In this document: piece by piece, positions 4,703 through 24,982 of the stretch
Layout of the letters: each line of letters begins with the position of its first letter
How positions within the stretch are numbered: the stretch's first letter is position 1
Assembly: GCA_016188545.1 (NCBI GenBank)
Contig: JACPHO010000006.1
Location: forward strand, 693-64,692
Direction: 5' to 3'
Source of the DNA: Candidatus Shapirobacteria bacterium
GTDB lineage: Bacteria > Patescibacteriota > Microgenomatia > UBA12405
DNA: 64,000 bases
Notes under the pieces: model-generated
Database searches by the model: none
Seen by the model: the letters and a program-made list of their open reading frames with translations, nothing else
What the model was told of the DNA's origin: nothing
Program-made: the position numbers and the translations under genes

Positions 4703-4772
4703 ACTCCTACTATTTTAGTAGTAGTATGGCCAATTTACAATAGGTAGCTGAAACTGGCTATACTCTATTCTG

Positions 4773-4845
4773 AGCCTGGAAAGGAACTTGAATCCTTGAC
4801 CTTCCCCTTACCAAGGGGATGCTCTACCAACTGAGCTATCCAGGC
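4773..4845 (-). tRNA. tRNA-Thr (anticodon GGT)
   Basis: Reverse complement GCCTGGATAGCTCAGTTGGTAGAGCATCCCCTTGGTAAGGGGAAGGTCAAGGATTCAAGTTCCTTTCCAGGCT folds as a cloverleaf: 7-bp acceptor GCCTGGA/TCCAGGC, anticodon loop TTGGTAA, T-loop TTCAAGT. CCA is not encoded. Confidence 0.85.
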
Positions 4846-4934
4846 GACTCGCTATTGTAACAAAAATTTTACCACTTACTAACCAGAAGATAGGTTCTTT
4901 TGCTATAATTCCTCATCTTAATTAGTAATTATTA

Positions 4935-5019
4935 ATTAATTTCCGGAGAGTGGGCAGGACGGTAATGCGCTAGTCTTGAAAACTAGTGGGAGCAATCCCT
5001 AACAGGTTCGACCCCTGTA
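4935..5019 (+). tRNA. tRNA-Ser (anticodon TGA), long variable arm
   Basis: GGAGAGTGGGCAGGACGGTAATGCGCTAGTCTTGAAAACTAG + long variable arm TGGGAGCAATCCCTAAC + T-arm AGGTTCGACCCCTGT + ACTCTCC G CCA. Acceptor GGAGAGT/ACTCTCC; anticodon loop CTTGAAA; CCA encoded. Confidence 0.85.
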
Positions 5020-5042
5020 CTCTCCGCCAGTTGGGAAAAGCG

Positions 5043-18860: not shown

Positions 18861-19202
18861 CTATGTCACTATTGGTAAATTTTCACTCTCCCACTGAGCT
18901 ATACCACCCGTCATATTAAAAACATTTTTGTAACCATGTTTCATCATATATTCCACTGCTGCCTCACTCCTCACCCCACTATGGCAATAAACATAAACCT
19001 TCGAATTTTTGTTAGGAATTATTTTTAGTATGTCACCCTCAAGGTTATCTAAAGGCAAGTTTATCGCTGTTTTAATATACCCCTCGTCAAATTCTTCCTT
19101 AGTCCGGACATCAAGAATTATTATTTCATCACCCTTAGTTATAAATCCATAGACTTCCTTCGGTTTTATTTCTGGAATTTCCATATTCATCATTATACCC
19201 AA
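18861..19202 (-). CDS. Rhodanese-domain sulfurtransferase
   Basis: 113 aa; active-site loop VYCHSGVRS. Confidence 0.8.
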   Translation of the reverse strand: MGIMMNMEIPEIKPKEVYGFITKGDEIIILDVRTKEEFDEGYIKTAINLPLDNLEGDILKIIPNKNSKVYVYCHSGVRSEAAVEYMMKHGYKNVFNMTGGIAQWESENLPIVT

Positions 19203-19229
19203 CTTCTAAAATAATCACCGCTGTCTTTA

Positions 19230-19320
19230 GTGCCCATAGTGCCAGTCTACAGAAGTTATCGATTCAGTGATTGCGGGCAGGTAGTTGGTAGCGCGGTCCG
19301 AAAGCTTTCGGACAGGTCAG
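19230..19320 (+). pseudogene. tRNA-like pseudo-fragment (5' acceptor/D-arm-like + aberrant anticodon-arm palindrome)
   Basis: GCCCATAGTGCCAG ... GGTAGTTGGTAGCGCG GTCCGAAAGCTTTCGGAC AGGTCAG; matches D-loop/D-stem of the downstream tRNA-Ala but does not fold into a canonical tRNA. Confidence 0.4.
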
Positions 19321-19409
19321 AATACAAAGACTCATCACCAATTGTTTTTTATCCTGAAAAATTTTCCATTCCACGTTATAATCGAACACATAGTCGCAAT
19401 ACTATAGCC

Positions 19410-19485
19410 GGGCCCATAGCGTAGTTGGTAGCGCGTCCCCATGGCATGGGGAAGGTCAGGGGTTCGAGTCCCCTTGGGTCCACCA
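19410..19485 (+). tRNA. tRNA-Ala (anticodon GGC)
   Basis: GGGCCCATAGCGTAGTTGGTAGCGCGTCCCCATGGCATGGGGAAGGTCAGGGGTTCGAGTCCCCTTGGGTCCACCA; G3:U70 identity pair present; CCA encoded. Confidence 0.85.
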
Positions 19486-19642
19486 AATGTCCGGAATAGT
19501 TTATATTCTTAGGTCACAAAAGAAACTATCAAAATTGCTAGGCAAATTGAATACAAATTAAAAAGATTAAAAAATAAAAAAATAATTGAAATGATAATAA
19601 CCAAGGGTGAACTATTTATTAACAAAAAAGAAAACATAAACT

Positions 19643-19720
19643 GGTAGCACGGTCCGAAAGCTTTCGGACAGGTCAAGGGGAAGTTTATCCGCCAGTGGCG
19701 GAAGTCCCCTTGGGTCCACA
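19643..19720 (+). pseudogene. tRNA-like pseudo-fragment (D-arm + same palindrome + T-arm with hairpin insertion + acceptor 3' end)
   Basis: TGGTAGCACG GTCCGAAAGCTTTCGGAC AGGTC AAGGGG aagtttatCCGCCagtGGCGGaagt CCCCTTGGGTCCACA; the 3' end is near-identical to tRNA-Ala but lacks CCA and has a 25-nt T-loop insertion. Confidence 0.4.
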
Positions 19721-19724
19721 ATTT

Positions 19725-19973
19725 CTAACAAGACTGTATTTTACGAGCACAGCCACCCACAACTTCTTCCACAGCCTCTACAGTTCCTGAATTAATTTTT
19801 CGGCTGCCCGTTCCGTCTACTTGAGTTACGTTTGATACTCTGACACGAGCCCAACCCCATTGACATCCGGGACATTTAACCATCCCTTTTCCATTCACGA
19901 TACCTGTTATATTTGTTGCTGTGTCGCCAGACGTTAATTCACGAACACAACCTATCCACTCAATGTCAACCAT
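19725..19973 (-). CDS. Hypothetical small Cys-containing protein
   Basis: 82-aa ORF (CPGCQWGW); GC-richer patch; may not be a gene. Confidence 0.2.
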   Translation of the reverse strand: MVDIEWIGCVRELTSGDTATNITGIVNGKGMVKCPGCQWGWARVRVSNVTQVDGTGSRKINSGTVEAVEEVVGGCARKIQSC

Positions 19974-20031
19974 GAATCGTGATTATACTTTATTGACATT
20001 ATTTGATCTAGTAGTATACTATCTTCCAACT

Positions 20032-21567: not shown

Positions 21568-21905
21568 AGTTCTCGCGAAGGCGGATCATATTCGAGCTAA
21601 ATTCTAGTTTGAATATGCTTTCTTTTCAAAAAATGTGTGTATTTTGTGGTGAACTTTGACCGTCATTGCGAGGCAGTTTACCCTGAGCGAAGTCGAAGGG
21701 TGGCAATCTCTTTTTTTAATGGATCCATTTCTGGTGGCAGTATTTTATTCTCAAATTGCTTGAGGCTAAGATACTGTCACTAGAGAAATTTTCTAGAGGT
21801 TGAGTAATACTTCAAAAAGTACAAACAGTTGTACTTTAAACCCAAACATTCGCCACCGGATCCGGCGAAAATTTTTTCAATTGTCACCCTGAAAGGAGAC
21901 AACAA

Positions 21906-23659: not shown

Positions 23660-24442
23660 ATGATCAGAGCTACTATTTTTTTCCTCAGAAGTCTTCTCTA
23701 TCACCTTACCTATTCAATATCGTCAAAAACCCCTGACAAAATAATCCTCTGTTATCACTCTGTTGGTGGTCCTAGTTGGGATTACAATGTCAAATTAAAC
23801 GATTTCAAAGATCAAATCGATTACCTTCTAACCCTTTATCAACCAACCACTTTAGACAAAATTATCACCGCGACAGCCCCCTCTTTTGTACTCACCTTTG
23901 ATGACGGCTACAAAAGTATTTTCAAAATTCACGAGTTTTTAAAGACAGAAAATATTTATCCCACCCTATTTCTTCTATCCGACAAGAAAAATCTGAATCA
24001 CCAAGAAATCGATAACAATATAAGTCTACTCAAAAATCATCAAGTCCGAAAACTAATTGCTTCCGGTTGGAAAATCGGTTCCCACGGCAGTCAACATCAA
24101 GATTATTGGCAACTCAAACCAAACGAAATTAGTTCTGAGATTGTCAAATCAAAAAGCGATCTTGAAAAAAGATTTGGAGTACCAATCAGTTGTTTCTCCT
24201 ACCCAAAGGGTAGATACTCACCAGCAATAATTGACGCAGTCAAAAACGCCGGTTACAAGATGGCCGCCACTATGGATGATGGAATCTTGGATAAAACAAC
24301 AAATCTCTATACCATTCCCCGAATCGGTGTCGACAAAACACTTAATATAGATGAGTTTAAAAGAGTATTAGCCATCTCTACAATTACCGCCAGAGGTATT
24401 GTCAAAAAACTCGGTGGCAAATTATTAGCTAAACTAATCTAG
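23660..24442 (+). CDS. Polysaccharide deacetylase (CE4/NodB homology domain)
   Basis: 260 aa; TFDDGY, HGSQH and proline-containing NodB motifs. Confidence 0.7.
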   Translation: MIRATIFFLRSLLYHLTYSISSKTPDKIILCYHSVGGPSWDYNVKLNDFKDQIDYLLTLYQPTTLDKIITATAPSFVLTFDDGYKSIFKIHEFLKTENIYPTLFLLSDKKNLNHQEIDNNISLLKNHQVRKLIASGWKIGSHGSQHQDYWQLKPNEISSEIVKSKSDLEKRFGVPISCFSYPKGRYSPAIIDAVKNAGYKMAATMDDGILDKTTNLYTIPRIGVDKTLNIDEFKRVLAISTITARGIVKKLGGKLLAKLI

Positions 24443-24711
24443 TTCTTGTACACCTCTTCATGTTTTCCAATTGCTACAAAATAAGCAGTATTCTCATCAA
24501 TATAATAAAAAATCATTCTGATACTCTCATTGATAGAAATACTCCACGATTCTTTCATTGATCCTGTTAGTTTATGCAACCTTAATGAAGGTCTTGACTT
24601 GTCCAAACAAAATATTTTTAATTTGCTTGCCACCAGATCATACAGCTTCTTGTTCTTCTTGGCTATTTTGAATAAATCTTTTTCTACTTTTGTGTCAAAT
24701 ATTACTTCCAC
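24439..24711 (-). CDS. Type II toxin, RelE/ParE family
   Basis: 90 aa; LHKLTGSMKESWSISINESIRMIFYYID..AYFVAIGKHEEVY (RelE fold signature). Confidence 0.7.
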   Translation of the reverse strand: MEVIFDTKVEKDLFKIAKKNKKLYDLVASKLKIFCLDKSRPSLRLHKLTGSMKESWSISINESIRMIFYYIDENTAYFVAIGKHEEVYKN

Positions 24712-24982
24712 TCTTCAGTTTAGCAAAATACTCATCGATATTATCAATTTTAATAGATTTGCTTTTTCCTGACAACGAGTCCGCGACTCTCTTCTTTACT
24801 CTATCCGAAGCCTCAAAAGTCGGGTACTCTTCCTCAACTTTGTTGACCATCAAATATTTGATATACGAGGCCAGAGTCATCCCCCACTTATCAGCCCTTT
24901 TCTTGACTTCATTTTTGAGAGCCACAGGCAAACTAATTTTTATCTGGGTAATTGCTTGATTCATACCACTATTATACCCCAA
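24695..24982 (-). CDS. Antitoxin, ribbon-helix-helix type
   Basis: Overlaps the toxin start by 17 nt; QIKISLPVALKNEVKKRADKWGMTLASYIKYLMV is RHH-like; probable start at the internal MNQAIT. Confidence 0.6.
   Translation of the reverse strand: MGYNSGMNQAITQIKISLPVALKNEVKKRADKWGMTLASYIKYLMVNKVEEEYPTFEASDRVKKRVADSLSGKSKSIKIDNIDEYFAKLKSGSNI

Follow-up and report, generated by a model that had tools for sequence, protein, structure and literature searches.

The window analysed here, a stretch of 64,000 nucleotides (64 kb) from a Shapirobacteria genome, contains an intact tRNA-Ala(GGC) gene that is enclosed by two tRNA-Ala-like pieces, an outer 5' piece at 19230-19319 and an outer 3' piece at 19642-19719. 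The canonical tRNA-Ala of the original prediction, at 19410-19485, was confirmed by both ARAGORN and Rfam. The features of the locus are listed below in order; sequences used for comparison are designated by L numbers throughout.

19230-19241, + strand: outer 5' piece, part 1, comprising the acceptor 5' strand and D-stem 5' strand of a tRNA-Ala copy, GTGCCCATAGTG; 10 of 12 bases match tRNA-Ala positions 1-12
19242-19280, + strand: 39-nt insertion that separates the D-loop of the outer copy from its D-stem 5' strand, with the 3' end TGCGGGCAG(G)
19281-19295, + strand: outer 5' piece, part 2, comprising the D-loop and D-stem 3' strand, GTAGTTGGTAGCGCG; 15 of 15 bases match tRNA-Ala
19296-19313, no strand assigned: left copy of the palindrome, in place of the anticodon arm; perfect, 18 nt
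19314-19319, + strand: variable-loop remnant AGGTCA, the end of the outer 5' piece
19320-19409, + strand: spacer with a sigma-70-like promoter match, CTGAAA-17-TATAAT (19354-19382), by consensus only
19410-19485, + strand: inner tRNA-Ala(GGC), intact, with CCA encoded and a G3:U70 pair (ARAGORN; Rfam tRNA, 64.7 bits)
19487-19521, + strand: GIY-YIG pseudogene, N-terminal remnant MSGIVYILRSQ(K), aligning to MPGYVYILKS of the L039 and L063 nucleases
19522-19647, + strand: GIY-YIG pseudogene, C-terminal 41 codons, ETIKIARQIEYKLKRLKNKKIIEMIITKGELFINKKENINW followed by a stop, in a frame different from that of the N-terminal remnant
19642-19651, + strand: D-arm 3' remnant TGGTAGCACG, the start of the outer 3' piece
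19652-19669, no strand assigned: right copy of the palindrome; perfect, 18 nt
19670-19680, + strand: variable loop of the outer copy followed by the 5' strand of its T stem, AGGTCA AGGGG
19681-19705, + strand: 25-nt segment in place of the T-loop, with the hairpin TCCGCC-AGT-GGCGGA
19706-19719, + strand: 3' strands of the T stem and the acceptor stem, and the discriminator, all of the outer copy, CCCCTTGGGTCCAC, without an encoded CCA; within a 17-nt repeat identical to 19467-19483

As originally described, the two outer pieces share a perfect 18-nt palindrome, GTCCGAAAGCTTTCGGAC. It forms the core of a 34-nt direct repeat (TGGTAGCRCG, palindrome, AGGTCA) at 19286-19319 and 19642-19675, with one mismatch and a spacing of 356 nt. 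Exactly two copies of the palindrome occur in the 64-kb window, compared with 0.01 matches expected from shuffled sequences, and two or more copies were seen in 0 of 100 shuffles. The description of the downstream piece also held: it ends in AGTCCCCTTGGGTCCAC, which matches the 3' end of tRNA-Ala in all 17 of its bases, and a 25-nt hairpin segment takes the place of its T-loop. Over their overlap the inner and outer tRNA-Ala copies are nearly identical, with the encoded CCA confined to the inner one. In the outer 5' piece a G2-to-T change breaks pair 2-71, and the D and T loops of the pieces are disrupted. The sigma-70-like match, a match to the consensus only, lies 28 nt upstream of the intact gene.

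Neither outer piece was matched by the Rfam tRNA model (19000-20000, E<=10), and the joined pieces gave 0 genes with ARAGORN, including the relaxed and intron settings. Only after both inserts had been removed by hand and the T-loop restored did ARAGORN call the joined halves, as a tRNA-??? with a 4-base 'anticodon', AGCT. Rfam searches of the whole window at gathering thresholds and of 19000-20000 at E<=10 returned, at this locus, the real tRNA only; the weak matches (HPnc0260, Plastid-ycf2 and permuted tmRNA, 14.7 bits) either map to the intact tRNA or the sequence just 3' of it, or represent noise. A tmRNA or a Y-RNA-like tRNA mimic, candidates raised by the G3:U70 pair, found no support. 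Most likely, tRNA-Ala(GGC) is the working copy and the outer pieces are relics, the two halves of a displaced older tRNA-Ala copy. An independent Logan assembly (L076) is identical to the window over 19458-19759, so that stretch is not misassembled. A sequencing adapter or assembly artefact was ruled out by this identity together with the constant tRNA register of the palindrome across many independent assemblies.

Judged by its similarity to complete homologues, the interval 19487-19647 is a pseudogene of a GIY-YIG nuclease of ~95 amino acids. The ATG of the N-terminal remnant, of which ~11 codons are left, lies 1 nt past the CCA of tRNA-Ala, and the stop codon, TAG, is part of the D-arm remnant TGGTAG. 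A tblastn search with the L039 nuclease matched 19522-19644 (58.5% identity, E 1.3e-11); 10 nuclease homologues match that same C-terminal stretch and nowhere else in the window, and the GIY-YIG family HMM detects the remnant with an E-value of 4e-6. Approximately 43 internal codons have been lost, including the YIG motif and the region of the catalytic Arg, and the reading frame is shifted, leaving two frames without a complete GIY-YIG catalytic domain. The window element can no longer act alone; this copy is inactive and has little functional consequence, and tRNA-Ala(GGC) is intact. The original prediction had overlooked the pseudogene between tRNA-Ala and the 3' piece.

Intact counterparts of this arrangement are present in other CPR bacteria, at Thr, Asp, Val, Pro, Arg and Ala tRNA genes. 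An intact cassette consists of an intact tRNA gene preceded by its own promoter-like spacer, one or two incomplete copies of that tRNA with a perfect GC-rich hairpin in place of the anticodon arm, and a GIY-YIG gene of ~95 codons that starts 0-2 nt past the tRNA and in some variants runs into the tRNA 5' end. With nuclease copies detected by tblastn and the family HMM, the gene adjoined or overlapped a tRNA gene at 12 of the 12 independent loci examined, outside any intron or intein. The ORFs of L039 and L060 score 61.3 and 60.2 bits against PF01541 (GIY-YIG; cut-off 22.6). Peptides translated from tRNA D arms or T arms were recognised in at least 18 of the 49 database homologues that have an N-terminal extension, and therefore the gene lies directly after a tRNA in these cases as well. 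The nuclease family is large (6998 clusters at 50% identity, E<=1e-3). Its best matches among solved structures are UPF0213 (BH0048, EF2693) or Slx1-like proteins (2.8e-9 and 1e-7), and TIGR01453, a profile for homing endonucleases of the SegB/I-TevI type, gives 25-27 bits against a cut-off of 56, matching residues 3-43 only. No recognisable DNA-binding domain was found in the ~95-aa protein. A full-text literature search returned SegB and HNH/tRNA-array precedents and no description of such a cassette.

The 18-nt palindrome of the window is identical in the cassettes L060, L063, L039, L062 and L023, and other hairpins occupy the same position in L066, L067, L070-73, L078, L080 and L082. The inserts of the outer copy also recur: the sequence TGCGGGCAG(G) at the 3' end of the 39-nt insertion is found in D-region inserts of L040 and L074, and L056 carries an insert similar to the 25-nt T-loop segment. 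The genome search for the palindrome gave 59 matches, of which ~9 would be expected by chance (our estimate, 596 Gb / 4^18). Outside the cassettes it occurs in intergenic repeats of Bacteroidetes and CPR bacteria, and the family HMM found no GIY-YIG gene near it in the Bacteroidetes or the other CPR repeat contexts; the palindrome is therefore not specific to the cassette. A phage vector was rejected, a search for the palindrome having found no copy in IMG/VR viral contigs.

Comparison among genomes showed that orthologous sites are polymorphic, being either filled or empty. The tRNA-Thr(GGT) locus of the window itself is empty, while the syntenic locus in L045 carries a 5' piece there and full cassettes are present at tRNA-Thr(GGT) genes of other genomes (L060, L039, L066). 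Similarly, the 68-nt 3' piece of L067 is missing from L068. The original prediction had proposed a comparison with relatives to see whether a mobile element occupies the locus. At the tRNA-Ala locus itself this comparison is with the relative L077, where a tRNA-Ala identical at 74 of 74 positions stands without the nuclease remnant or the 3' piece; the L077 contig ends 24 nt upstream of the gene, and the comparison thus covers the 3' side.

The inner tRNA can also differ in allele from the halves that enclose it. In L039 the outermost 5' GCCCAGG pairs perfectly with the outer 3' CCTGGGC, and the inner gene has GCCCGGA/TCCGGGC. In L060 the outer pair is GCCTGGA/TCCGGGC versus GCCCAGA/TCTGGGC for the inner gene, and in L067 the T arms differ between outer and inner copies. 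The outer halves are thus mutually paired and unlike the inner tRNA in two or three intact cassettes. Inner and outer copies agree, where comparable, in the window, L066, L062, L080 and L082.

We consider it probable that a small selfish cassette of homing type, nested in a tRNA gene and carrying its own nuclease, has left a dead copy at the window locus. The suggestion in the original prediction of a disrupted ancestral tRNA and a mobile element was essentially right, with the element being the remnant of a GIY-YIG cassette and not an integrase-type island. A route by which such a cassette would spread can be proposed from the example of SegB of T4/T6 and similar free-standing GIY-YIG homing endonucleases. 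The nuclease would break a cassette-free tRNA gene, and repair of the break would copy in the cassette, using as the sole available homology its tRNA-derived arms, with the acceptor and D arm on the left and the variable loop, T arm and acceptor on the right. The incoming cassette would supply a working tRNA and so preserve host function, while the hairpins would mark the cassette ends and deprive the displaced halves of both target and homology. The architecture, the pseudogene, the intact homologous cassettes and the filled or empty state of orthologous sites were observed directly, whereas cleavage, homing and any function of the hairpins are inferred. Sequence-specific homing in particular is an assumption, because the protein has ~95 residues and no recognisable DNA-binding domain, and its nearest solved relatives are UPF0213 proteins and the structure-specific nuclease Slx1, with I-TevI and the Seg enzymes further away. 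The survival of an intact inner tRNA beside a nuclease that would cut tRNA genes also counts against the homing view.

A purely local origin, in which nuclease breaks at the tRNA are repaired by unequal or microhomology-based events to leave partial tandem tRNA-Ala copies in situ, with no horizontal homing, appears unlikely. It would account for the tandem 5' pieces in L023, L039 and L066 and for a tRNA-Asp locus at which samples L070-L073 differ in their number of [5' piece + nuclease] units (1, ~1.3 or 2), and there is a documented precedent in the SegB-dependent recombination that uses microhomology between a tRNA 5' region and the segB 3' end and amplifies tandem units (PMC13096335). The near-identity of the inner and outer copies in the window would also fit a local duplication of this particular copy. 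However, the inner tRNA and the outer halves of L039, L060 and L067 represent different alleles, an outcome that local duplication does not give. The same 18-nt palindrome accompanies a similar nuclease at tRNAs of different identity in different genomes, and the CCA in the window is found in the inner copy but neither in the outer copy nor in the L077 gene.

It is quite unlikely, in our estimate, that the palindromes are instead the true termini of the element, extruding as cruciforms or hairpins that are cut by a structure-specific GIY-YIG nuclease like Slx1 without any sequence-specific homing; the segment between them would then be excised or mobilised, or hairpin insertions would be seeded at the hairpin loops of tRNA genes. 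The kinship of the nuclease with UPF0213 and Slx1 is consistent with such a scheme, as is the position of the hairpins, always at the junction between the cassette and the displaced tRNA halves. Their stems belong to one sequence family, (G)TCCGA(T)...(A)TCGGA(C), and displaced copies carry additional hairpins precisely at the apexes of their D and T loops. In L066 the left hairpin is the reverse complement of the right one, as terminal inverted repeats would be, but this is the sole informative case of flipped hairpins. Furthermore, a second terminus is missing from the single-hairpin variants (5'-type or 3'-type cassettes), other repeats contain the palindrome without such a nuclease nearby, and excised or empty 'solo hairpin' sites were not seen. 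A broader proposal along these lines is that ~95-aa Slx1-like GIY-YIG proteins and perfect hairpins together make up an unrecognised class of mobile elements in CPR bacteria and possibly beyond, nested in tRNA genes, with cruciform-forming palindromic termini, a structure-specific nuclease, a replacement tRNA that permits invasion of essential single-copy tRNA genes across species, and hairpin seeding at tRNA-gene hairpin loops. We regard this as speculative and doubtful.

Two further origins named in the original prediction fared poorly. That an integrase-type island repeatedly entered and left tRNA-Ala, leaving these footprints, is highly improbable: a direct repeat does flank a segment beside a tRNA gene, but none of the ORFs between 14 and 25 kb looks like an integrase or recombinase (by inspection of the ORF list, with Pfam on four nearby ORFs), and the repeat core is a foreign palindrome, neither tRNA sequence nor a tRNA 3'-end att core. 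The 356-nt unit contains just the tRNA and the GIY-YIG remnant, and recombination at a 3'-end att site does not yield a 5' tRNA piece. Even less credible, to a degree that we consider nearly negligible, is a functional split, permuted or nested tRNA-like RNA in which the outer pieces pair around the inner tRNA through the 18-bp palindrome duplex and the acceptor stem. The minimum-free-energy fold of 19225-19725 does pair the two palindromes (z = -3.4), and in L074 a tRNA-Lys is nested within an outer tRNA-Lys between inverted repeats. Against this, the joined pieces have no anticodon loop, their pair 2-71 is broken and their D and T loops are disrupted, and neither ARAGORN nor Rfam calls them; L077 has the same tRNA-Ala without the 3' piece, and in other genomes the pieces are variably truncated or duplicated.

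The closest known counterpart of the proposed selfish cassette is SegB, a GIY-YIG homing endonuclease encoded in a phage tRNA cluster, the site of which includes the T-psi-C motif (PMC2330249). As in the cassettes, the GIY-YIG gene lies directly beside tRNA genes. The SegB target contains a conserved tRNA-gene motif (the T-psi-C stem-loop), SegB carries neighbouring tRNA genes along, and its recombination yields tandem units; at the window locus the nuclease reading frame stops within a D-arm copy, and L073, L023 and L039 contain tandem units. Unlike the cassette nuclease, SegB is phage-borne and much longer, with only the first ~35 residues comparable to the ~95-aa, UPF0213/Slx1-like CPR protein. 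The cassette is chromosomal and was not found by the palindrome search of IMG/VR, and neither split pseudo-tRNA arms nor hairpin-substituted anticodon arms have been described for SegB. The layout shared by SegB and I-TevI, an N-terminal GIY-YIG domain followed by a linker and a C-terminal DNA-binding domain, is not that of the cassette nuclease.

Homing genes borne by introns or inteins, such as I-TevI in the td group I intron, resemble the cassette in residing within a conserved essential gene, sparing the host and relying on the flanks for repair homology. In the cassette, by contrast, nothing is spliced; a whole replacement tRNA is carried, and the invaded copy is left as two dead halves. 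Integrase islands and prophages use tRNA genes as landing sites, keeping a working tRNA and leaving a displaced partial copy at the far end (attL/attR). The cassette locus shares the landing site, the working tRNA and the displaced partial copy, but the cassette has no integrase, its repeat contains a non-tRNA palindrome, both 5' and 3' partial copies are present, and it measures only ~0.35-0.5 kb. The minimal GIY-YIG proteins of the UPF0213 (BH0048, EF2693) and bacterial Slx1-like type are of the same size and single-domain and provide the best solved-structure matches. To our knowledge they have no assigned function or genomic association, whereas the cassette gene is consistently joined to tRNA genes and to tRNA fragments that carry hairpins. 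In archaeal split and permuted tRNAs the halves are also encoded apart, and a bulge-helix-bulge motif is where they join to give a functional tRNA (PMC3218864); the halves in the window, in contrast, are decayed, lack an anticodon loop and are bacterial.

If the homing interpretation is correct, the cassette would provide a selfish nuclease gene with an intron-free route into the essential, often single-copy tRNA genes of very small genomes, bringing a spare tRNA and turning the old gene into two dead halves. Horizontal replacement of tRNA alleles would be explained in this way, for example the CCA-encoding copy in the window and the C54 T-loop variants among cassette-borne tRNAs. The cassette nuclease would rank among the smallest candidate targeting nucleases, with a target rule based on either sequence or DNA structure. 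Such cassettes would further account for false ORF predictions extending from tRNA genes, including the 64-aa and 70-aa ORFs that overlap the window locus in the ORF list, as well as breaks of metagenome contigs at tRNA genes; L076 ends inside tRNA-Ala.

The tRNA-Ala locus of the window is a dead copy of a cassette that elsewhere combines an intact tRNA, a gene for a ~95-aa GIY-YIG nuclease and hairpin-bearing partial tRNA copies, and its interest lies in the family to which it points. ARAGORN, which the original prediction had proposed as a check, and Rfam agree on a single tRNA-Ala, and neither detects the partial copies on its two sides (the 5' and 3' pieces) as tRNAs.

Features of the tRNA-Ala locus
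19230-19319: 5' piece, made up of GTGCCCATAGTG (10 of 12 bases as in tRNA-Ala), a 39-nt insert, GTAGTTGGTAGCGCG (15 of 15 bases as in tRNA-Ala), the palindrome and AGGTCA
19410-19485, + strand: intact inner tRNA-Ala(GGC), CCA encoded
19487-19521: start of the nuclease remnant, 1 nt past the CCA and in a different frame from the rest, MSGIVYILRSQ (compare the N-terminus MPGYVYILKS)
19522-19644: remainder of the nuclease remnant, translated as ETIKIARQIEYKLKRLKNKKIIEMIITKGELFINKKENINW
19642-19719: 3' piece, made up of TGGTAGCACG, the palindrome, AGGTCA and AGGGG, a 25-nt segment with a hairpin substituting for the T-loop, and, as its last 17 nt, AGTCCCCTTGGGTCCAC, the same sequence as at the tRNA-Ala 3' end; no CCA

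The palindrome, GTCCGAAAGCTTTCGGAC, has exactly two copies in the window, at 19296 and 19652 (0.01 expected), each enclosed in a 34-nt direct repeat (TGGTAGCRCG-palindrome-AGGTCA; copies 356 nt apart). The original prediction had described the tRNA, the two pieces, the shared palindrome and the T-loop insert correctly, and an artefact was rejected on the identical sequence of 19458-19759 in an independent Logan assembly. Two ORFs overlapping the pieces and palindromes, of 64 aa (19230-19424, + strand) and 70 aa (19509-19721, - strand), are almost certainly spurious.

What had been missed is the nuclease. The palindrome occurs in the same tRNA register (GAGCR before, AGGTC after) in other genomes of the CPR, the ultra-small bacteria to which the source genome belongs, and in metagenomes. 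At these loci a ~95-aa ORF encoding a clear GIY-YIG nuclease (PF01541, 60-61 bits) separates the intact tRNA from the 3' piece; in the window the gene remnant takes this place. The 19522-19644 translation shares 58.5% identity with the C-terminus of the protein from one such locus, L039 (E 1.3e-11), and is matched by ten homologues, which match nowhere else in the window; the family HMM also picks up the remnant (E 4e-6). Some 43 internal codons are missing, the YIG motif and catalytic Arg among them. Its stop is a TAG within the D-arm remnant TGGTAG, and intact genes end alike (...INW*).

Cassettes at other loci (complete: identical palindrome present; variants: drawn from the contigs of seven homologous proteins)
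L060: complete; 5' piece, spacer, tRNA-Thr(GGT), nuclease, 3' piece with T-loop hairpin
L063: complete; tRNA-Thr(TGT)
L062: complete; tRNA-Asp
L039: complete; tRNA-Thr(GGT)
L023: complete; tRNA-Ala(GGC), contig binned as Victivallaceae
L066, L080, L082: variant; tRNA, nuclease, 3' piece
L070-73, L078: variant; 5' piece, nuclease, tRNA, the nuclease ORF stopping within the tRNA 5' end
L067-69, L074: variant; nuclease running into the tRNA

A tRNA gene adjoins the nuclease in all 12 independent loci. The nuclease family is large, with 6998 clusters (50% identity) at E<=1e-3 and 378 at E<=1e-10, and translated tRNA D-arm or T-arm peptides are found in at least 18 of 49 members with an N-terminal ORF extension, so those genes directly follow a tRNA. 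Many ORF calls of database homologues (P0002, P0054, P0067, P0097, P0123, P0135, P0186 and others) begin inside the upstream tRNA gene, so that their N-terminal peptides (AQLVE... and ...VAGSNPA, for example) are translated D and T arms; such starts are a systematic annotation artefact of the family.

Several observations indicate that the tRNA-Ala structure is an insertion and not an ancestral arrangement. L077, the only relative found for the neighbourhood (an 82-aa neighbouring ORF is 74% identical), has the same tRNA-Ala at 74/74 bases, lacking the encoded CCA, with neither nuclease remnant nor 3' piece; this comparison with a relative, of the kind suggested by the original prediction, covers the 3' side, the 5' side lying beyond the contig end. 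What L067 has and L068 lacks is exactly the 68-nt 3' piece. The window itself contains an empty site of the same family at 4772-5029, where tRNA-Thr(GGT) (- strand) and tRNA-Ser(TGA) (+ strand) have no pieces; the syntenic locus L045 has a 5' piece there, and full cassettes occupy tRNA-Thr(GGT) genes of other genomes (L060, L039 and L066), with the tRNA-Ser(TGA) neighbour also present in L039 and L060. In L039, GCCCAGG of the outermost 5' piece is fully complementary to CCTGGGC of the outer 3' piece, whereas the inner tRNA has GCCCGGA/TCCGGGC; an allele difference of this kind separates inner from outer copies in L060 and L067 as well. Nested or serial pieces in L063, L082 and L039 look like repeated invasions. 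Two origins offered by the original prediction were rejected: integration and excision of an integrase island, as inspection of the ORF list showed no apparent recombinase and the repeat does not consist of a tRNA 3' end; and a functional split or permuted tRNA, as the pieces have no anticodon loop and go uncalled by both ARAGORN and Rfam, and as a relative lacks the 3' piece.

A perfect hairpin (GTCCGAAAGCTTTCGGAC, GTCCGGTGGACACCGGAC, GTCCGATGTGACATCGGAC, GTCCGATGTCCATCGGAC, TCCCGATGAAATCGGGA, TCCCGATCGGAGATCGGGA or GTCGCCAAGGCGAC) replaces the anticodon arm in every partial tRNA copy spanning that position; the exceptions are both 5' pieces of L039, which end after the D arm, and the outer tRNA-Lys of L074, which retains its own arm. 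Displaced copies carry extra hairpins in the D-stem/D-loop region and in the T-loop between T55 and C56, and the 39-nt and 25-nt inserts of the window are of this kind. In the intact tRNA-Ala(GGC) the anticodon arm (19436-19452) already forms a near-perfect DNA palindrome of 17 bp, TCCCCATG-G-CATGGGGA, and those of tRNA-Thr GGT and TGT do likewise; the substitution in dead copies therefore swaps palindrome for palindrome. The hairpins might serve target destruction, break homology with the inner tRNA, act as nuclease substrate, or be independent palindromic insertions. The palindrome GTCCGAAAGCTTTCGGAC (59 genome matches, ~9 of them expected by chance) is also found outside cassettes: individual Bacteroidetes MAGs have several copies within intergenic repeats, and in CPR genomes repeats of the 'gtcattgcgag...caatctc' type have it at their apex. 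No family GIY-YIG gene lies near it in these repeats (non-cassette loci L001, L005, L011, L014, L021, L024, L031, L047 and others; L006, L012, L020, L036).

From the observed anatomy and polymorphism we infer a mechanism, for which homing as in free-standing GIY-YIG endonucleases is the best-supported model. A cassette-free tRNA gene would suffer a break, a cassette-bearing copy would template its repair with the tRNA-derived arms as the only homology on hand, and the working tRNA would then come from the cassette. The closest characterised case is SegB of T4/T6, a GIY-YIG enzyme of a tRNA cluster with the T-psi-C motif within its 27-bp site (PMC2330249); it makes the tRNA 5' region recombine with the 3' end of segB (PMC13096335). 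The CPR protein, however, is a minimal domain that fails the I-TevI/Seg-type profile, its nearest solved relatives being UPF0213 proteins and the structure-specific nuclease Slx1, which leaves room for a second, less likely model with the palindromes as cruciform termini recognised by structure. The left and right cassette hairpins in L066:1150-1900, GTCCGGTGGACACCGGAC and GTCCGGTGTCCACCGGAC, are mutually reverse complementary while their tRNA-derived flanks are direct repeats, as terminal inverted repeats or loop flipping would produce; only this one informative case was found. For the window copy, a nuclease-provoked, purely local duplication is also possible. Full-text searches of an incomplete library returned SegB and HNH/tRNA-array precedents but no account of minimal GIY-YIG cassettes that are nested in tRNA genes and bear pseudo-tRNA arms with hairpin substitutions; because of this coverage, the novelty of this presumed free-standing homing-endonuclease cassette type is provisional.

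Tandem units of 5' piece plus GIY-YIG gene number 1, about 1.3 or 2 at one tRNA-Asp locus (four samples, L070-L073), resembling SegB-type segmental amplification. An intact tRNA-Lys(CTT) at L074:1860-2080 is nested between the D arm and anticodon arm of a second copy, with CTGCCCGCTTCGCC and GGCGAAGCAAGGCGGGCGG as inverted repeats on its two sides. Cassette-borne tRNAs at L060:412-485, L063:58-133 and L067:1755-1830 have a TCCGAAT or TCCGAGT T-loop, with C replacing the near-universal T54, and TTCGA or TTCAA is the usual sequence in displaced or resident copies; the cassette-borne forms could be nuclease-resistant alleles, although the arrangement in L039 is opposite. Elsewhere in the window, the hairpin repeat 'gtcattgcgagg...caatctc', which is widespread, has one copy at 21663-21710 that lacks the palindrome and gives the spurious ORF peptide RHCEAVYPERSRRVAIS, and two small overlapping ORFs at 24439-24982 (- strand) resemble, judging by eye from their translations, a RelE/ParE-type toxin and its antitoxin.
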